A stretch of 6,826 nucleotides of DNA, from positions 1 to 6,826 of IMG/VR virus record IMGVR_UViG_2693429599_000001; one strand, given 5' to 3'. Source of the DNA: a virus. Lineage: Duplodnaviria; Heunggongvirae; Uroviricota; Caudoviricetes. Made by a program: the position numbers and the translations under genes. Below, piece after piece: positions 1 through 6,826 of this stretch. The notes under the pieces were generated by a model. That model had not been told where the DNA came from, ran no database searches, and worked only from the letters and a program-made list of their open reading frames with translations. The stretch's first letter is position 1. Each line of letters begins with the position of its first letter.

Positions 1-1535
1 TTACGCAGTGCGCCTTCCTGCTGGTCAAACAGGTCAGTCCCCACCGCCTCATAAGCGGACTGAAACTCTTTAAAGTCACCGCCGAGGTTGTCCTGCATGA
101 TATTTACCAGCTCGGCGGTCTTCCCGTCTGAGGCTTTAAACGCAGCGGTCAGTTTGTCCAGCTTTCCGGTTGAGGCGGCAGTCATCAGCACGGCGGCGGC
201 TGAGCTGGCCTCCTCCCCGAAAATAGTTTTCATGTATTCAGCCTGCTGGGCAGTACCGAGCCGGTTTTTCTCAAAACTGGCCTGCATTTCTTTCAGAATG
301 GTAAATACTGGTCGGGTATTCCCCTTACTGTCTGAGGTTTTTACGCCAAGCTCTTTGAGTGCATCCCATGCTTTTCCCGTTGGTGCCTGCAGGCGACTTA
401 ACACGGCACGGCTTCCCGTCCCCGCCATTGAGCCTGTGATTTTTGCATCATGCAGCGCCCCGACCATTGCGGCGGTTTCTTCAATGCTGACACCGGCATT
501 TTTTGCCACAGGTGCGGCATAGGTCAGCGCATCGCTCATGCCGTCAAAATCGGCGGCGGTTTTGTTCATCGTCATGGAGAGAACATCCCCGATATGAGCG
601 ACCTTATCGTTTGAAAGCTGAAAGGCGGATTTCATCCCCATCAACAGGGCGGCGTTTTCTTCCATCGTGCGACGGTTCGCCAGCGCCATATTCAGCGTGA
701 CCGGCGTTGCCGCCTGAATGGCATCAACATCCCCACCGGCTTTTGCAATAATAATCTGCGCACCGGCTGCATCATCTGCCGAGGCTGCGGTATTGTCGCC
801 GAGCTGACGCGCCTGCTTGCGTAGTGCAGCCATTTCGGCGGAGTCTTTTGCCACTCCGAGCACAGCCTGTAATTCTGAGTTTTTCTGCGCAAACTCATAA
901 CCGGGCATCAGCAGCTTAACTCCGGCCATCGTTCCCGCCGCCGCAATCCCCACACCGGCAGCGCCCACCGAGGCCATATTTCCGGCCAGTTCCTTTCCGG
1001 CCTGATAACGCTGTTTTACTGCGTTAAGTTTTGCCTGTTGCGCACTGACACGCGCCAGTGCGTCGCGCTGACGATTAAGCTGTGCGGTGGTTTCACTGAT
1101 ACGGTTTTTCAGCCCCTGCTCATCATGTGCAAGATTGCGGGTATTAATTCCCACAGCGGCCAGTTCCCGCTGCTGGCGTTTAACGGAATCCGTCAGGCGG
1201 TTATATTTCGCCTGTAAGTCCTCCGCCGCTCGCTTTGCTGATTCCAGCACTTTCGCCTGAGCACGGGTCGGACGTTCGGTGTTTTTAAACTGTGTGGCAA
1301 GGGCTTCGGCCTCCTGCCGTGCCTTTTCAAGTGCATGACCAGTCACGGCAAGCTGTGCACTGGTCTTGCGAAATCCCTCAATACGGGAGGCGTGACCGTT
1401 CAGCTCGCGCAGTGATTTTTGTGTTTCCCGGATATCCCCCGACAGCGACTTACTCGCTGTGCGGATGGATTTAAACGGGCGGGATGCCTGGTCAACAGCC
1501 CTGAGCAATACCTGTAATTTTACATTGTTACTCAT
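1..1535 (-). CDS. T: Tail tape measure protein, P2 gpT-like; N-terminal 511 codons, gene runs off the window at position 1
   Basis: Minus-strand ATG at 1535-1533 translates MSNNVKLQVLLRAVDQASRPFKS; the frame stays open to the window edge (the tta at 1-3 is out of frame). Its ATG overlaps the E' stop (AATGAGTAA), and it sits downstream of E/E' as in P2. Coiled-coil-like A/Q/K/R-rich sequence. Confidence 0.85.
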   Translation of the reverse strand, partial: MSNNVKLQVLLRAVDQASRPFKSIRTASKSLSGDIRETQKSLRELNGHASRIEGFRKTSAQLAVTGHALEKARQEAEALATQFKNTERPTRAQAKVLESAKRAAEDLQAKYNRLTDSVKRQQRELAAVGINTRNLAHDEQGLKNRISETTAQLNRQRDALARVSAQQAKLNAVKQRYQAGKELAGNMASVGAAGVGIAAAGTMAGVKLLMPGYEFAQKNSELQAVLGVAKDSAEMAALRKQARQLGDNTAASADDAAGAQIIIAKAGGDVDAIQAATPVTLNMALANRRTMEENAALLMGMKSAFQLSNDKVAHIGDVLSMTMNKTAADFDGMSDALTYAAPVAKNAGVSIEETAAMVGALHDAKITGSMAGTGSRAVLSRLQAPTGKAWDALKELGVKTSDSKGNTRPVFTILKEMQASFEKNRLGTAQQAEYMKTIFGEEASSAAAVLMTAASTGKLDKLTAAFKASDGKTAELVNIMQDNLGGDFKEFQSAYEAVGTDLFDQQEGALR

Positions 1536-1955
1536 TCGTGTTTCCGCTTCGCCGGAGCGCCTTTTCGCGCCATGTGATAAGTTCGGTCAGGCTCATGGGA
1601 TACAGTTCTGATGGCGGCCAGTGAAATATCACTGCCACATCCGCCATCAGGTCATCGACCGAGAGATTTTTCGGAAACGTCACTGCACCGAGTTCGGCGA
1701 CAAAAAACCGACCACCTTACCGGCCAGCGCCACAAGGTCAGGCAGTTCCAGCGCGGCGACTTCCTGCTCGGTCAGCATCGGTGCCGTCATGCGCGGCAGC
1801 ACCTTAATCAGTGCATCGACTTCGGAGTTTGCAACCGCAGCCAGACTGACACCGCGTAGCGTCCCGGCATTGGGTTTCATCAGCGTGACCTGTTCGATAA
1901 CCTGCTCACCACGTTTGACCGGATTGTCCAGGGTAATGACATTTTCTTTGTTCAT
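1528..1955 (-). CDS. E+E': Tail assembly chaperone gpE+E', product of a programmed -1 frameshift (142 aa predicted)
   Basis: After the slip at GGT TTT TTG, the -1 frame stays open for 57 codons (VAELGAVTFPKNLSVDDLMADVAVIFHWPPSELYPMSLTELITWREKALRRSGNTNE) to a TAA at 1530-1528. That gives 85 + 57 = 142 aa, the length I recall for P2 E+E'. Confidence 0.75.
1680..1955 (-). CDS. E: Tail assembly chaperone gpE (91 aa)
   Basis: ORF-track protein MNKENVITLDNPVKRGEQVIEQ...GFLSPNSVQ; its position between tube and tape measure, its length and the slippery site near the 3' end match P2 E. Confidence 0.9.
   Translation of the reverse strand: MNKENVITLDNPVKRGEQVIEQVTLMKPNAGTLRGVSLAAVANSEVDALIKVLPRMTAPMLTEQEVAALELPDLVALAGKVVGFLSPNSVQ
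1701..1707 (-). other. Slippery heptamer T_TTT_TTG for the E/E' -1 ribosomal frameshift
   Basis: Plus strand caaaaaa at 1701-1707 is TTTTTTG on the minus strand, in the 0-frame context GGT TTT TTG at codons 83-85 of E. The P2 and lambda G/GT-type chaperone frameshift sites are of this kind. Confidence 0.75.
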
Positions 1956-2011: not shown

Positions 2012-2530
2012 TCACAGGCCGATATTGCGGCGGTGTTGCTCCAGCCGGTCGACGCCGTTCACCTTCTCAATCATGTTGATGGTGTCAATTTCGACCAGCT
2101 CCTTACCGTCCATCGTCAGCCGGAAATAGGTGCAGACCACGGAGATTTTCGACTCAGTGTCTTCTCCCTGTTTACCCTCGCCGGTGTCGATTTCTTTCTG
2201 ACGTCCACGCATGACCACTTCGACGGCCACCGTTTCGCCGGTATCATCGCGCTGGTAAGAGCCTGCAAAACGAATCGGCACGGCATCCACGCCGGTTGCG
2301 GCGTAAAGCTCCCAGATAACCGAATCCGGGAAGCCCCCGAGCGACCACTCCATTGACAGCGCATCGTCATCAAGGCCGAGGTCTACCGGTGCGCTGCCGT
2401 TCATCCCCGCACCGCGATAGTTTTCGAGCTTACGGGTCAGTTTTGGCAGCGTGACGGACTTTGCAACGCCCTGATAGCTGTAGCCGTTCAGAAAGACGTT
2501 CATTAACTTGAGTTTGCGTGGCATTGCCAT
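2012..2530 (-). CDS. FII: Tail tube protein, P2 gpFII-like (172 aa)
   Basis: ORF-track protein MAMPRKLKLMNVFLNGYSYQGVAKSVTLPKLTRKLENYRGAG...; GGAG ribosome-binding site 8 nt upstream of the ATG; lies immediately downstream of FI, and its size matches P2 FII. Confidence 0.9.
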   Translation of the reverse strand: MAMPRKLKLMNVFLNGYSYQGVAKSVTLPKLTRKLENYRGAGMNGSAPVDLGLDDDALSMEWSLGGFPDSVIWELYAATGVDAVPIRFAGSYQRDDTGETVAVEVVMRGRQKEIDTGEGKQGEDTESKISVVCTYFRLTMDGKELVEIDTINMIEKVNGVDRLEQHRRNIGL

Positions 2531-2542
2531 CGGTCAGGCTCC

Positions 2543-3733
2543 TTAATTGCTGTTAACCGAGGTGACCAGATTTGCCAGGTATTTATCGGTAATACGCTGG
2601 CGCAGGGTCAGGTTTTCGAGAGGAGGCACCGGTGTATAGTCGTAGTCGATATACAGTTTTCCGGCCTTGAGGGTTTCCGCATCGTTGGATTCTTCGCTGA
2701 ACCAGCAGGTCGCATCCACGATATAGCCGTTTGTTTTCAGCTCACGGAATTTGGCATTGATGCCGTCAACGATGTCGCGAATCAGCGTTGCGGTGATGGG
2801 CTTGTCCACCGCCCACATGTGCGCCTCAGCCATCGTGTCGGCCAGCACCTGCGCGGTGCGGGTGTAGTTTTCAAAGAGGAACAGCGGGTCATCAGAGCAG
2901 GTACGGTTACCCCAGAAGCGGAAACCATCACGGCGAATCAGCGTTGTGACGCCTGACTCATTCAGCAGGTCAGCATCGGTGCCGGACTCCTGCAAATCCC
3001 AGAATACAGAGGCACTGATGCCGGTAACACCGTTTACCCCGACATTGGACAGCGTTTTATGCCAGCCCTGCTCCTGGTCGATTTTAGCGCGCAGACCCAG
3101 CGCACGGGCGGTGGCATACGCGGTGGCGGTGGTGCTGCTGACCGTATCCCATGCGAGGAAATCCGGCCAGATGACCATCAGCTCACGCTGGCTGAAATTC
3201 TGGCGGTAGGCTTTCACCTCGGAAATGGTTTTACAGCCCCATGCGCTGATATACCCGAAAGCGCGCAGCTTCTGACAGACTGATGCCAGTGCAACAGCCA
3301 CCTCTTTGGTGTCCAGTCCCGGCACGCCGAGAATACGCGGTTTAACACCGGTTACCGACTCCGCCGCCAGCAGGGCTTTCAGTCCGGTATACTGACCGTT
3401 TTCGTCAGTGGTGCCGATGATATTGGAAACGGTCTGCGCGAGTTTCGTTTCTTCGTCGTCGCCGGTGCCGTCTTCAACACGCACGACAACGGTAACCGGT
3501 TTTGACTGGTCAGCGATGGCCTGCAACGATGCCGCCAGCGTGCCTTTTTTACCGGCCTTTGCAATTGCGCTCTGCACATTGGTAATCAGCACCGGTTTAT
3601 TGAGGGGGAAGGTTTCCGCATCCGCATCGCTGGCCGTACAGACCATGCCGACAATGGCAGTGGATACGGTGGAAATGACGCGGGTGCCGTCGTTAATCTC
3701 CAGCACCTGCACGCCGTGATGATAGTCACTCAT
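2543..3733 (-). CDS. FI: Contractile tail sheath protein, P2 gpFI-like (396 aa)
   Basis: ORF-track protein MSDYHHGVQVLEINDGTRVISTVSTAIVGMVCTASDADAETFPLNKPVLITNVQSAIAKAGKKGTLAAS...; a GGAG ribosome-binding site precedes the ATG; length and N-terminus match P2 FI as I recall it. Confidence 0.93.
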   Translation of the reverse strand: MSDYHHGVQVLEINDGTRVISTVSTAIVGMVCTASDADAETFPLNKPVLITNVQSAIAKAGKKGTLAASLQAIADQSKPVTVVVRVEDGTGDDEETKLAQTVSNIIGTTDENGQYTGLKALLAAESVTGVKPRILGVPGLDTKEVAVALASVCQKLRAFGYISAWGCKTISEVKAYRQNFSQRELMVIWPDFLAWDTVSSTTATAYATARALGLRAKIDQEQGWHKTLSNVGVNGVTGISASVFWDLQESGTDADLLNESGVTTLIRRDGFRFWGNRTCSDDPLFLFENYTRTAQVLADTMAEAHMWAVDKPITATLIRDIVDGINAKFRELKTNGYIVDATCWFSEESNDAETLKAGKLYIDYDYTPVPPLENLTLRQRITDKYLANLVTSVNSN

Positions 3734-3792
3734 CCGTTTAACTCCGTGGTTAATGGGTGAGTGATATTTTCAGTTGTGCCGGAGATGTCAGG

Positions 3793-4386
3793 CTATTTGT
3801 CCCGGTTGGCTAAGGGATGACACAATTTATTCTTTGTCGCTGATGAGGGGAATTTTTTATAGAGCGTGGACAGGCCAATATCAAAAATCAGCGCCACGCG
3901 TTGACGTGATTCACCCGCAGCCAGCAACCGTCCTGCCTGTTCCCACTCACTCGCGGTGAGCTTCGGACGTCTGCCACCAATACGACCTTTGGCTCTGGCC
4001 GCTTCCAGTCCGGCGCGAGTCCGCTCAACAATGAGTTCTCGCTCCATTTCAGCCAGGGCACCCATCACATGAAAGAAAAAACGCCCCATCGGCGTGCTGG
4101 TATCAATGGCATCCGTCAGGCTGCGAAAATTAATGCCGCGTTCGCGCAGCTCCTCAACCAGAATGACCAGATGCCGCATACTACGCCCCAGCCGGTCCAG
4201 CTTCCAGACTACCAGTGTATCCCCCTCCGATAATGTCCTGAGCAGTTTTTTCAGCCCCGGCCTGTCGGACTTCGTGCCGCTGATTTTATCCTCAAAAATC
4301 AGCTCACATCCTGCGCACTCCAGCGCGTTACGCTGCAATTCCGTGTTCTGGTCATTTGTTGACACGCGTACATAGCCAATAAGCAT
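3793..4386 (-). CDS. Serine DNA invertase, Hin/Gin/Cin/Pin family (resolvase-type catalytic domain plus C-terminal HTH)
   Basis: Translation MLIGYVRVSTNDQNTELQRNALECAGCELIFEDKISGTKSDRPGLKKLLRTL...VVWKLDRLGRSMRHL...GINFRSLTDAIDTSTPMGRFFFHVMGALAEMERELIVERTRAGLEAARAKGRIGGRRPKLT has the active-site Ser in VRVSTNDQ. I prefer the ATG at 4386-4384 (GGGGGA ribosome-binding site 5 nt upstream) to the ORF-track start at 4392. Confidence 0.9.
   Translation of the reverse strand: MLIGYVRVSTNDQNTELQRNALECAGCELIFEDKISGTKSDRPGLKKLLRTLSEGDTLVVWKLDRLGRSMRHLVILVEELRERGINFRSLTDAIDTSTPMGRFFFHVMGALAEMERELIVERTRAGLEAARAKGRIGGRRPKLTASEWEQAGRLLAAGESRQRVALIFDIGLSTLYKKFPSSATKNKLCHPLANRDK
4279..4303 (-). promoter_or_regulatory. 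Candidate recombinational enhancer element (Fis-site-like palindrome) inside the invertase 5' coding region
   Basis: Imperfect palindrome gctgatttt-N7-aaaatcagc at about +83 to +107 of the invertase gene; a second A/T-tract element ctgagcagttttttcag lies at 4238-4254, about 45 bp away. Hin, Gin and Cin enhancers lie in the 5' part of the invertase gene with two Fis sites about 48 bp apart. Position-based inference only. Confidence 0.25.
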
Positions 4387-4413
4387 GAGCATCCCCCTGA
4401 ATAAAAACCGGAG

Positions 4414-4803
4414 ATGATGCCAGTTGCCCGTTATCTCTGCATTTTCATAAACGTTGGTTTGGGGGAATTGGCTCTGGCTGGCGCAACAACCGGCGCTATG
4501 TTGGTGAATGGGTATGTAGCAATTCCATTAATTATTTCTGGCGTTCGGAGACCACTTATTATCCAGTGGGGAGTGGGGCAGTTTGGGGGAAGTCTGGGGG
4601 ATGATGCGGGATATTTAAACAATTTCCCTTTCGCTTTTCCGTCGGCGTGCTACGTGATGGTTGCCAGCCACGTGGGGCATACACCTTCGGGTGCCGGAAT
4701 ACTATCTGCTTCCGCAATCACAAAAAGCGGCTTTCGTGGTTTTTCCAGCGTAGTGACTGCCGCAAATCCTGTATCGGGCTGTTATGTTGCTATAGGAGGG
4801 TGA
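4414..4803 (+). CDS. Tail-fibre C-terminal (tip) cassette, invertase-proximal duplicate; probably silent unless joined to a fibre 5' part by recombination
   Basis: From 4454 it encodes the same 116 C-terminal residues as the fibre ORF ending at 5771 (LGELALAGATTGAMLVNGYVAIPLIISGVRRPLIIQWGVGQFGG...SGCYVAIGG). The ATG at 4414 directly abuts a GGAG (no spacer) and lies in the invertase upstream region, so independent translation is doubtful. Confidence 0.5.
   Translation: MMPVARYLCIFINVGLGELALAGATTGAMLVNGYVAIPLIISGVRRPLIIQWGVGQFGGSLGDDAGYLNNFPFAFPSACYVMVASHVGHTPSGAGILSASAITKSGFRGFSSVVTAANPVSGCYVAIGG
4442..4467 (+). other. Putative invertase crossover site A (26 bp, 12-2-12): ttttcataaacg tt ggtttgggggaa
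   Basis: Imperfect dyad with AAAC-type half-sites resembling hix/gix/cix/pix sites; lies 55 bp upstream of the invertase start; the 429-bp repeat begins at its central TT. Confidence 0.6.
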
Positions 4804-4882
4804 TGTGTTTTTTAGTCCATCTTTAAATATTTTTGTGAATCCTGCGCTTAAGGATGACTACATCAATGTAAATTCATGGCCA
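4454..4882 (+). repeat. Direct repeat copy 1 (429 bp, identical to 5422-5850)
   Basis: Base-by-base comparison of the two blocks; the identical antisense ORFs 4431-4622 and 5381-5590 in the ORF track reflect the same repeat. Confidence 0.95.
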
Positions 4883-4885
4883 TGA
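4805..4885 (+). pseudogene. Truncated tail-fibre assembly gene fragment (first 26 codons of the tfa at 5773, then a stop at the repeat boundary)
   Basis: GTG at 4805 with an AGGAGG ribosome-binding site, identical to the 5773 start; the frame hits TGA at 4883-4885, exactly where the repeat ends. Confidence 0.55.
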
Positions 4886-4901
4886 AGGCGTACTCATTGC
4901 G

Positions 4902-5771
4902 GTGGCGAACTGCCCGGAAACGTACAAACCGCAGTTGCAGGAAGGCAGTGGTCGTACCCAGACTATCCGCATGATTCTGGTTGTCACGAATACCGAAGCC
5001 ATCACGCTGAAAATCGACCCGTCGGTGGTACTGGCGACCCGTAAATACGTGGATGATAAAGTCCTGGAATTAAAGCTGTATGTGGATGACCAGATGAGAA
5101 ACCACATTGCCGCACAGGATCCTCATACCCAGTATGCACAGAAACATAATCCGACATTTACCGGAGAACCAAAAGCGCCGACGCCTGCCGCAGGAAATAA
5201 CACCACGCGGATTGCGACCACTGCGTTTGTACAGGCCGCTATTACCGCTCTGATTAACGGTGCCCCTGACACGCTGGACACACTGAAAGAAATTGCCGCA
5301 GCTATCAACAATGACCCGAAATTCAGTACCACCATTAACAATGCGCTGGCAGGTAAACAACCGCTGGACAATACGCTGACTCATTTGAGTGGAAAGGATG
5401 TAGCTGGTCTTCTCACATACCTTGGTTTGGGGGAATTGGCTCTGGCTGGCGCAACAACCGGCGCTATGTTGGTGAATGGGTATGTAGCAATTCCATTAAT
5501 TATTTCTGGCGTTCGGAGACCACTTATTATCCAGTGGGGAGTGGGGCAGTTTGGGGGAAGTCTGGGGGATGATGCGGGATATTTAAACAATTTCCCTTTC
5601 GCTTTTCCGTCGGCGTGCTACGTGATGGTTGCCAGCCACGTGGGGCATACACCTTCGGGTGCCGGAATACTATCTGCTTCCGCAATCACAAAAAGCGGCT
5701 TTCGTGGTTTTTCCAGCGTAGTGACTGCCGCAAATCCTGTATCGGGCTGTTATGTTGCTATAGGAGGGTGA
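4902..5771 (+). CDS. Tail fibre protein, 5'-truncated copy or alternative cassette (shaft region plus C-terminal tip); first ~100 codons of a full fibre gene absent
   Basis: Frame is open from 4872 with no ATG; first GTG at 4902. Encodes VLIAVANCPETYKPQLQEGSGRTQTIRMILVV...KYVDDKV...HNPTFTGEPKAPTPAAGNNTTRIATTAFVQAAITALINGAPDTLDTLKEIAAAINNDPKFSTTINNALAGKQP, which from memory resembles P2 gpH around residues 100-160 and the conserved enterobacterial side-tail-fibre motif. Crossover site B lies at codon ~170. Confidence 0.75.
   Translation: MANCPETYKPQLQEGSGRTQTIRMILVVTNTEAITLKIDPSVVLATRKYVDDKVLELKLYVDDQMRNHIAAQDPHTQYAQKHNPTFTGEPKAPTPAAGNNTTRIATTAFVQAAITALINGAPDTLDTLKEIAAAINNDPKFSTTINNALAGKQPLDNTLTHLSGKDVAGLLTYLGLGELALAGATTGAMLVNGYVAIPLIISGVRRPLIIQWGVGQFGGSLGDDAGYLNNFPFAFPSACYVMVASHVGHTPSGAGILSASAITKSGFRGFSSVVTAANPVSGCYVAIGG
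5410..5435 (+). other. Putative invertase crossover site B (26 bp): ttctcacatacc tt ggtttgggggaa
   Basis: Right half-site and core identical to site A, left half identical at 8 of 12 positions; same orientation as site A; lies inside the fibre ORF (encodes ...LLTYLGLGEL...). Confidence 0.6.
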
Positions 5772-5850
5772 TGTGTTTTTTAGTCCATCTTTAAATATTT
5801 TTGTGAATCCTGCGCTTAAGGATGACTACATCAATGTAAATTCATGGCCA
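5422..5850 (+). repeat. Direct repeat copy 2 (429 bp, identical to 4454-4882)
   Basis: Base-by-base comparison; starts at the central TT of site B and ends 78 bp into the tfa at 5773. Confidence 0.95.
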
Positions 5851-6207
5851 GATGATGCTGTTGAAGTTGATGAGCAGGTGTATATTGAGTTTTCCGGATT
5901 ACCGCCGAAAGGAAAAATCCGTATCGCTGGGGAAAATGGTTTTCCTGCATGGTCTGAAATTCCACCACCAACGCATGAGGAACAGATTGCCGCAGCCGAA
6001 TTGAAAAAACAGCAATTGATTAATCAGTCCAACGAATATATGAATACCAAGCAATGGCCTGGTAAAGCGGCTATTGGTCGTCTGAAAGGTGAGGAACTGG
6101 CGCAATATAATTTGTGGCTGGATTATCTGGACGCACTGGAACTGGTTGATACCTCCAGTGCTCCAGATATTGAATGGCCTACGCCTCCGGCAGTTCAGGC
6201 CAGATGA
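5773..6207 (+). CDS. Tail fibre assembly protein (Tfa, P2 gpG or Mu U-like chaperone) for the plus-strand fibre cassette
   Basis: GTG start 5 nt after AGGAGG and 1 nt after the fibre stop; C-terminus ...WLDYLDALELVDTSSAPDIEWPTPP shares the conserved Tfa C-terminal motif with the 6179-6772 protein. Confidence 0.85.
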   Translation: MFFSPSLNIFVNPALKDDYINVNSWPDDAVEVDEQVYIEFSGLPPKGKIRIAGENGFPAWSEIPPPTHEEQIAAAELKKQQLINQSNEYMNTKQWPGKAAIGRLKGEELAQYNLWLDYLDALELVDTSSAPDIEWPTPPAVQAR

Positions 6208-6772
6208 CATCCGGCGCGGTGCTCGTATCTGTTGCCGTCACCGCGTCAATGTAATCAAGCACGGCGTTAAGCCGGGTGGTTTCTGCCTGCGTCAGCTTCC
6301 GCCCGGCCTGTAATTTCAGCTGAATCAGGCTGATGGAAGCCATTGCAGCATCAATCAGTGACTGGCGCTGTGCTTCTGCCGCTTCTACTGCGGCACCGTG
6401 TTGTGCCTCAGTATCTGTCACCCATTTCTCACCATCCCATTTATCATATGGCGTTAACGGTGAAAGCGTGACATAACCGTTTTTGATGGCACCGATATAA
6501 TCCACTGTAACAGCTGCGCCATTTTCGATTGAGTAAACAGTCTCATTGCGATGGTCTTCTTCATGGCTCCATCCCTTACCTGTAAATACTGCCACTCTTC
6601 CCGGAATGTTTTCGCCAGGGTCAATACCAGTGGAACAGGCGGGCATACTTACGCCAGTATTAATATATTCATCAGACCAGCCCGTATACTCAGATGTTTC
6701 AGCATCATAATAAAAACAACGCATATCGCCCGGCACTGTAGCCAGCCCATTTTCATCAAAAACAGGTTTCAT
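6179..6772 (-). CDS. Tail fibre assembly protein (Tfa) partnered with the minus-strand fibre gene upstream
   Basis: ORF-track protein MKPVFDENGLATVPGDMRCFYYDAETSEY...LDYIDAVTATDTSTAPDVIWPELPEA; GAGGG ribosome-binding site upstream; converges on the plus-strand tfa with a 29-bp 3' overlap (6179-6207). Confidence 0.85.
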   Translation of the reverse strand: MKPVFDENGLATVPGDMRCFYYDAETSEYTGWSDEYINTGVSMPACSTGIDPGENIPGRVAVFTGKGWSHEEDHRNETVYSIENGAAVTVDYIGAIKNGYVTLSPLTPYDKWDGEKWVTDTEAQHGAAVEAAEAQRQSLIDAAMASISLIQLKLQAGRKLTQAETTRLNAVLDYIDAVTATDTSTAPDVIWPELPEA

Positions 6773-6826
6773 TATTTAGCCCTCACCAGAAAGTTAAATG
6801 CAATGTTACGTGGTCTGACGGCAATA
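6772..6826 (-). CDS. Extreme 3' end of the upstream minus-strand gene, presumably the expressed tail fibre (P2 H equivalent); partial, frame unresolved
   Basis: Two minus-strand frames are open to the window edge: one ends with TGA at 6785-6783 (...LPSDHVTLHLTFW), the other with TAA at 6774-6772 overlapping the tfa ATG as TAATG (...NFLVRAK). Gene order H then G is expected from P2. Confidence 0.3.
   Translation of the reverse strand, partial: IAVRPRNIAFNFLVRAK

Follow-up and report, generated by a model that had tools for sequence, protein, structure and literature searches.

The window, i.e. the whole stretch of DNA that was analysed (6,826 nucleotides), is one entire 6.8-kb draft E. coli contig which breaks off within T at one end and 54 nt into Hv at the other; the 5' part of the fibre gene H and H's own crossover site therefore fall outside the contig. 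The contig is the tail region of a P2-like (Peduovirus) E. coli prophage, and its features are collected in Table 1. The genes lie in the order H, fibre chaperone, a variable slot, pF, FI, FII, E/E' and T, and this order, together with the activator site upstream of FI, is that of a P2-like (Peduovirus) late tail gene module. The layout of E and E' is like that of the E/E+E' frameshift pair in the P2 reference annotation, and all of the tail genes visible in the window are intact. No RNA family was detected in the window using Rfam, and the window proteins gave no NCBIfam matches above the curated cut-offs.

Table 1. Features of the 6.8-kb window, with coordinates, strand and the evidence for each.
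Feature	Coordinates	Strand	Evidence
T (tape-measure), 3' part, cut by contig end	1-1535	-	PF10145; colinear with L001
Tail chaperone genes E and E'	1528-1955 (E 1680-1955, E' 1528-1683)	-	PF10109; PF06528 Phage_P2_GpE
FII, tail tube	2012-2530	-	PF04985, E 2e-60
FI, tail sheath	2543-3733	-	PF04984, PF17482, PF22671
pF, P2-type late promoter with Ogr-type activator site	3734-3828	-	Alignment to annotated P2 pF
Gin/Pin/Cin/Hin-family serine DNA invertase, 197 aa	3793-4386 (ORF open to 4392)	-	Pfam, PHROG, Gin alignment
Putative recombinational enhancer, two G-N13-C Fis-like 15-mers	4302-4365 (4351-4365, 4302-4316)	-	In invertase 5' end
Invertase-proximal crossover site, 26 bp	4442-4467	+	TTTTCATAAACG-TT-GGTTTGGGGGAA
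Hv', silent tip copy 1, Gp53-like C domain	4468-4803	+	PF21882; 100% identical to copy 2
tfa' stub, 26 codons, TGA made by duplication junction	4805-4885	+	Junction 4882/4883
H constant-part fragment, approx. codons 97-272	4883-5409	+	97.7-98.9% identity to H of L001/L002; PF12571 positions 104-150
Second crossover site, 26 bp, H-type left half	5410-5435	+	TTCTCACATACC-TT-GGTTTGGGGGAA
Hv', silent tip copy 2	5436-5771	+	100% identical to copy 1
tfa', chaperone of silent tip, GTG start, 144 aa	5773-6207	+	PF02413 (Caudo_TAP), E 3e-35
tfa, chaperone of currently expressed tip, 197 aa	6179-6772	-	PF02413 (Caudo_TAP), E 5e-27
H 3' end, tip Hv, last 17 codons; rest beyond contig	6772-6826	-	IAVRPRNIAFNFLVRAK, then stop

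The variable slot corresponds to the Z/fun position of P2, where the same interval of the reference genome reads G, a terminator, fun(Z) on the opposite strand, pF and FI. In the alignment with P2 pF, homology is continuous from approximately position 3813, the activator-site TTGTG is kept at 3825-3821, and from the activator site on the region is near-identical to that of P2; the P2 match was confined to query positions 1-174, corresponding to window positions 3640-3813. The final ~12 codons of the invertase overlap the pF region. The H operon of P2 is a late operon which depends on the Ogr activator; in the P2 reference annotation activator dependence was seen for pF only.

The invertase ORF is full length and apparently intact. 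Its product matches the Resolvase N-terminal domain (PF00239, E 3e-52), HTH_7 (PF02796, E 1e-12) and the PHROG 'DNA invertase' (E 8e-102), shares 80% identity with Mu Gin (181 aa aligned), and aligns to the Gin structures (PDB 3uj3/4m6f) across residues 1-182, including the catalytic Ser9, which lies within VRVSTNDQ. The first-pass annotation had called a Hin-family invertase here, between the fibre-assembly gene and FI, on the FI strand and 59 bp upstream of it; the comparison with Gin that it suggested, the P2 gene order, the pF alignment and the 59-bp gap between the invertase stop (3793) and the FI start (3733) bear out each of these points. Residues whose conservation is confined to invertases include the basic helix-B positions Hin 47, 48 and 51 and the Fis-contact patch Hin Q151, R154 and L155 (PMC3798978), and these correspond to K46/K47/R50 and Q150/R153/L154 of the window protein, whose numbering is one below that of Hin. 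By fold, active-site serine, HTH and family-specific residues, the protein is a predicted member of the Fis/enhancer-dependent family, and an identical protein is present on at least 1000 contigs.

Two G-N13-C motifs, which from the Hin and Gin literature we take to be Fis sites, lie in the 5' end of the invertase gene. They are degenerate and 49 bp apart, and their positions align with those of the same motifs in Mu gin. Centre to centre, the nearer motif and the proximal crossover site are ~96 bp apart, and the enhancer-hixL distance has been reported as roughly 100 bp (PMC3798978). Inversion probably needs Fis bound to this putative enhancer. A sigma-70 scan found no promoter upstream of the invertase. 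A terminator-like hairpin at 4406-4425, between the proximal site and the invertase start, was dropped as a candidate (z = -0.42 against shuffled sequences).

In both crossover sites, imperfect 12-bp inverted half-sites flank a 2-bp core. The two sites are in direct orientation to one another and are situated at LGLGE codons inside fibre gene sequence. They resemble the Mu gix site (TTATCCAAAACC-TC-GGTTTACAGGAA), with a TT core instead of TC, and occupy the same LGL codons and reading-frame position as gix in Mu S. An inverted pair of sites is present in two near-identical E. coli prophages (97-99% identity), of which L001 is in the orientation of the window and L002 is flipped; the inverted partner of the window sites should be found in H, beyond the contig. 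Breakpoints relative to these prophages fall at 4451-4467 and 5419-5435, and the BLAST breakpoint against the flipped L002 coincides with the proximal site. Between L001 and L002 the half-sites are swapped exactly at the central TT, as a G/A difference in the right half-site follows the cassette, the left half keeping to its flank. As read from these alignments, such a reciprocal half-site exchange is the signature of invertase recombination. Among complete E. coli genomes, 44 carry Hv' beside the invertase and 27 have it fused to H. Another relative, L006, uses a quasi-site in FI and its sheath gene is split; this quasi-site has no counterpart within 3 mismatches in the window.

The alternative cassette is more elaborate than the simple inverted fibre and tfa pair originally described. 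That pair is present (4902-5771 and 5773-6207), but the tip occurs twice and is accompanied by a third site and a truncated copy of H. The first Hv' copy is read by an ORF (4414-4803) which starts at an ATG upstream of the proximal site, and the H constant-part fragment runs opposite to the expressed H. Together with the second Hv' copy, positions 4902-5435, which include the second site, form a 5'-truncated H ORF of 289 aa (4902-5771, +), comprising ~175 constant-part codons, tail-collar fibre N-terminal positions 104-150 and the Gp53-like C domain; there is no obvious ribosome-binding site before its GTG at 4902. In the flipped L002, tfa' is directly downstream of an intact H-Hv' gene, and the translated H end of the window (IAVRPRNIAFNFLVRAK, then stop) matches the C-terminus of H in L001. 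H ends in unrelated tips in the two orientation states (427 vs 391 aa). The convergence of the two tfa genes noted in the first-pass annotation stands, with a 29-bp overlap; between the proteins, the likeness to Mu U and U' holds at Pfam family level only, as it does for P2 G, and neither chaperone matched Mu U, Mu U' or P2 G by BLASTP at E < 1e-3.

Our reading, to which we give a probability of roughly 0.85, is that the locus is a Gin-type tail-fibre host-range switch of a P2-like E. coli prophage with a third site derived by duplication. A Gin-type serine invertase in the Z/fun slot of P2 would recombine the 26-bp sites inside H, and a segment of ~1.8 kb would flip, replacing the C-terminal receptor-binding tip of H and its cognate chaperone. 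As assembled, Hv and tfa are in the expressed position, with Hv' and tfa' silent and opposite-facing. A 968-bp tandem duplication and then an inversion would have placed the third site and a redundant silent Hv' beside the invertase. We infer that the switch is active in this strain, that it depends on Fis and that it affects host range. The earlier proposal of an invertible fibre and chaperone cassette in the Z/fun slot, with host-range switching as its predicted outcome, is to this extent supported by the sequence.

The duplicated unit of 968 bp comprises part of the H constant region, a site, Hv' and the first 82 nt of tfa', and it is visible as a direct repeat of 429 bp (4454-4882 and 5422-5850) with 100% identity. 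At the junction 4882/4883, nt 82 of tfa' is linked to H codon ~97, away from any crossover site and with 1 nt of shared sequence; a GATGATG motif common to H and tfa' was considered as junction microhomology and rejected, as the actual join shares that single nucleotide. When a tandem duplication of 968 bp and then an ordinary inversion are simulated, the result is exactly the contig. With three sites, one of them inferred and off the contig, the simulated locus has four interconvertible states and two fibre tips; the duplication left a third site and a redundant Hv', and therefore four arrangements share two tips. Two of the four states put an N-terminally truncated fibre ORF (289 or 325 aa) in the sense orientation, and one state mismatches the Hv' fibre with the wrong chaperone. 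A shufflon-like locus, such as p15B Min or the three-repeat locus of the EPEC P2-like prophage, would have more than two sites giving more than two alternative C-termini, and the third cassette here is an identical copy of Hv', so it adds no specificity.

It is possible, if doubtful, that the switch is real and the three-site layout is an assembly artefact, the actual locus being an ordinary two-site one. As this is a draft contig with a perfect 429-bp repeat, the assembler could have taken a wrong route through its graph in arriving at the order A-R-B-R-C, and a second P2-like prophage or a population of mixed orientation possibly confused it. That the entire contig is only 6.8 kb and ends inside T and Hv suggests repeated prophage DNA, the repeat copies are identical throughout, and no instance of the junction turned up in 5,426 complete E. 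coli genomes, the GTDB species representatives or IMG/VR. However, k-mer mis-joining or orientation heterogeneity would not make a junction which lies off the crossover sites and shares 1 nt, and the exact recreation of the contig by one duplication and one ordinary inversion also speaks against an artefact. The novel junction must come either from real reads or from a chimera.

An unlikely alternative is that the locus is a frozen relic, either because the prophage is defective or because the partner site has been lost, in which case the invertase, if active, would act in trans and on other prophages alone. Pin-type invertases with cross-activity have been documented (PMC12529663), the window shows just a fragment of the prophage, the silent truncated H copy indicates an earlier rearrangement, and related loci do decay, as in the relative with the split sheath gene. 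Against this, the invertase ORF is intact, as are the two sites and all of the tail genes that can be seen, and the identical invertase protein is widespread.

We consider it distinctly improbable that the duplication is both real and an early step toward multi-cassette fibre switches, in which a site and tip were copied together to give a four-state switch with possible truncated decoy fibres. If this were true, a 289- or 325-aa fibre without its baseplate-attachment end would lie downstream of the full fibre gene in two states, and such truncated fibres might be receptor-blocking decoys, comparable to the reported StfE2. Very improbable is a main role in the lysogen, where inversion would alter the expressed fibre fragments and so block receptors against other phages, given the GTG at 4902 without an obvious ribosome-binding site and the late, Ogr-dependent H operon established for P2; its precedent is PinQ and StfE2 of e14, where fibre fragments are reported to protect the host by blocking receptors (PMC12529663), and two of the four simulated states would supply the truncated ORF in the sense orientation.

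Taken as a Gin-type host-range switch, the locus is built like the Mu G/Gin, P1 C/Cin and e14 P/Pin segments. It has the order of the Mu G type (constant fibre, site, tip, chaperone, inverted chaperone' and tip', site, invertase), as well as the 80% identity to Gin, related 26-bp sites at LGL codons and convergent chaperones. Unlike in Mu, the virion is P2-type, the module lies between the fibre chaperone and pF/FI, a third site and duplicated tip are present, and the chaperones have no BLASTP match to U/U'. The junction of invertase, pF and FI was found at 96-100% identity in 603 of the 5,426 complete E. coli genomes and in 7 phage records. P2-like carriers include the E. coli prophages L001 and L002, the phages pro483, S164 and 'P2' of O157:H43 T22, and Salmonella phage MET_P1_103_31; these share cassettes with the window, but the 968-bp duplication junction is in none of them.

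An invertible fibre switch in the Z/fun position of P2-like phages is already known and documented. Invertases in this hotspot were reported in a 2024 preprint (bioRxiv 10.1101/2024.10.15.618418), and experiments have demonstrated inversion in P2-like prophages, one of them with three repeats (Goldberg et al. 2014, PMC4272514). The latter, a 'shufflon' in the P2-like prophage of EPEC E2348/69, has three sites, two nested inversions and four variants, as determined by sequencing and PCR (PMC4272514). Compared by description, it behaves as the simulated window does; it has three different C-termini and inversions ~400 bp apart in size, whereas the window has an identical Hv' and a truncated H.

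As the switch is common and has been described before, the finding is correct but ordinary. Its value is mainly one of annotation: the contig is identified as P2-like tail DNA carrying a Gin-type switch and the crossover sites are placed, and caution is needed in annotating such loci as the assembled orientation is just one of several that are possible. In a small way the duplication illustrates how additional cassettes may arise, and it brings no new specificity. With an invertible tip, a temperate phage can hedge between two host receptors, and inversion makes clonal cultures of the lysogen genetically mixed.

The phage genes of the window lie on the minus strand, apart from an inverted block on the plus strand, and their coordinates confirm the layout proposed in the first-pass annotation, in which an invertase and an inverted fibre and chaperone cassette are situated between the fibre chaperone gene and the sheath gene FI. 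As had been described, the chaperone genes tfa and tfa' are convergent (with a 29-bp overlap) and the invertase, on the same strand as FI, stops 59 bp before the FI start. E (1680-1955) and an overlapping E' ORF (1528-1683) have a layout like the P2 E/E+E' programmed -1 frameshift pair.

Coordinates, strands and content of the features in the window
Feature	Position	Strand	Remarks
T, 3' part only	left contig end	-	
E/E'	1528-1955	-	
FII, tube	2012-2530	-	
FI, sheath	2543-3733	-	
Serine invertase	3793-4386	-	beyond inverted block
Crossover site	4442-4467		TTTTCATAAACG-TT-GGTTTGGGGGAA
Fibre-like ORF	4902-5771	+	within inverted block
Crossover site	5410-5435		TTCTCACATACC-TT-GGTTTGGGGGAA
tfa'	5773-6207	+	within inverted block
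tfa, fibre-assembly chaperone	6179-6772	-	
H, final 17 codons	6772-6826	-	translation IAVRPRNIAFNFLVRAK, then stop

The reference interval of P2 consists of G, a terminator, fun(Z) on the opposite strand, the pF activator site and FI. On alignment, P2 homology resumes at the activator-binding site (TTGTG...TTAGCCAACCGGGACAAATAGCC) and is near-perfect up to the FI start, and P2 itself matches a probe of the invertase-FI junction at 3640-3813 only. The Z/fun slot is therefore filled by the invertase module up to the late promoter, as the earlier reading had placed it, and the final dozen or so invertase codons come from promoter DNA. The invertase ORF shares its 3'-terminal stretch (3793-3828) with the P2-type pF promoter and its activator site, the promoter-encoded C-terminal tail (…LCHPLANRDK) is unlike that of Gin, and transcription of the gene would continue directly into FI.

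The invertase (197 aa) is 80% identical to Mu Gin across 181 residues and aligns end to end with the Gin crystal-structure sequences, with its catalytic serine in VRVSTNDQ, which bears out its assignment to the Hin family. Only Fis/enhancer-dependent invertases conserve Hin K47, K/R48, K/R51 and Q151, R154, L155 (McLean et al., PMC3798978). The counterparts here, numbered one lower than in Hin, are K46, K47, R50 and Q150, R153, L154. The identical protein is found on at least 1000 E. coli and Salmonella contigs. A putative enhancer lies in the 5' end of the gene, where two G-N13-C Fis-like 15-mers (4351-4365 and 4302-4316), candidate Fis sites going by the Hin and Gin literature, align in position with the same motifs of Mu gin. 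The centre of the nearer 15-mer is ~96 bp from that of the site at 4442-4467; the reported distance for hixL is ~100 bp (PMC3798978). The gene also contains a 15-nt inverted repeat (3884-3898 and 4273-4287, 14/15 complementary), which may be due to chance; its right arm shares positions with GCTGATTTTATCCTC (4279-4293), a Fis-like motif rich in A/T.

Two 26-bp sites of gix/hix form are present in the window, both with a central TT where Mu gix (TTATCCAAAACC-TC-GGTTTACAGGAA) has TC; the site codes for ...LGLGE... in H and, in the identical frame, for ...LGLQE... in Mu S. An ORF of 129 aa (4414-4803) comprises the silent tip; its ATG falls in the interval separating the crossover site from the invertase start, and the equivalent in relatives is a 'gp53-like domain-containing protein' in RefSeq.

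Comparison among relatives supports inversion of the segment by the invertase; in the strain of the window, inversion and the fibre switch that had been predicted are probable. The segment is oriented as in the window in the prophage of E. coli 2013C-4974, and in that of E. coli ECJXMCRH7 the cassettes are 98.9% identical and flipped, so that H ends in Hv' (391 aa, Gp53-like C domain) followed by tfa', and the silent Hv and tfa adjoin the invertase. The BLAST breakpoints fall within the sites (4451-4467 and 5419-5435), and the half-sites have switched partners precisely at the central TT; Hv' is invariably accompanied by the right half GGTTTGGGGGAA and Hv by GGTTTGGGAGAA, and the left half-sites remain beside H or the invertase flank. 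Counts over complete E. coli genomes give 44 with Hv' beside the invertase and 27 with Hv' fused to H. Together, these are the pattern expected from invertase-mediated exchange.

RefSeq annotates H of the 2013C-4974 prophage (6096-7379 in the coordinates of that locus, minus strand) as two pseudogene pieces; the same region translates as a single uninterrupted 427-aa ORF, and the call is probably an annotation artefact of the chimeric, switchable C-terminus. In a related P2-like prophage of E. coli AR_0013 (NZ_CP032204.1), a larger inverted block takes in the 5' part of FI along with the invertase, both chaperones and the fibre tip (ends at 3243-3250 and 6838-6841 in the coordinates of that locus). 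The inversion runs from the H site, TTCTCACATACC-TT|CGATAATGTCGC, to a quasi-site within the sheath gene, TTCTCCCAAACC-AA|GGTATCCGCGCC, and has split that gene; it appears that the invertase acted off target here and inactivated the prophage.

The invertase-pF-FI junction was detected at ≥80% coverage in 603 of the 5,426 complete E. coli genomes, and also in the P2-like phages pro483, S164, 'P2' of O157:H43 T22 and Salmonella phage MET_P1_103_31. The P2-like Z/fun hotspot often encodes a DNA invertase with adjacent genes inverted (Egorov and Atkinson, bioRxiv 10.1101/2024.10.15.618418), and in EPEC E2348/69 sequencing and PCR have revealed that two P2-like prophages continue to invert, one of them with three repeats and with four variants present together (Goldberg et al., PMC4272514). 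Given these occurrences and reports, the arrangement is common, and an invertase fibre switch in the Z/fun slot is already known.

The window spans all of CYFI01000057.1, a contig from the draft E. coli assembly GCA_001283785.1; it starts mid-T (position 1) and ends 54 nt into Hv (position 6826). Breaks inside T and Hv suggest repeated prophage DNA in the genome, and a second prophage with shared sequences in this strain. Within the contig, 4454-4882 and 5422-5850 are 100% identical, each with the site core, Hv' and the initial 82 nt of tfa'. The stretch separating them, 4883-5409, is a piece of the constant part of H (approximately codons 97-272), opposite in orientation to the expressed H. 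The order of parts across this 429-bp repeat is that of the draft assembly and is a candidate path. At 4882/4883, nt 82 of tfa' is joined to H with 1 nt shared, creating a TGA. This junction had no match among the 5,426 complete E. coli genomes, IMG/VR or GTDB representatives; a k-mer artefact is an unlikely source of it.

Starting from the flipped state, a tandem duplication of 968 bp and then an inversion between the outer sites yield exactly the contig. When the locus was simulated, with the H 5' part of the 2013C-4974 prophage substituted for the missing sequence, four interconvertible states were obtained: H-Hv with tfa, as assembled; H-Hv' with tfa', via a 1806-bp inversion; H-Hv' with a 26-aa tfa' stub, a 289-aa truncated H and tfa', via a 2774-bp inversion; and a mismatched state of H-Hv' followed by truncated H-Hv with tfa. 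As only two tips exist, no specificity is gained from the third site, and the repeats should be easily lost through homologous recombination. The duplication with its redundant third site, as laid out in the draft contig, is probably real, and it is the sole unusual feature of the window.
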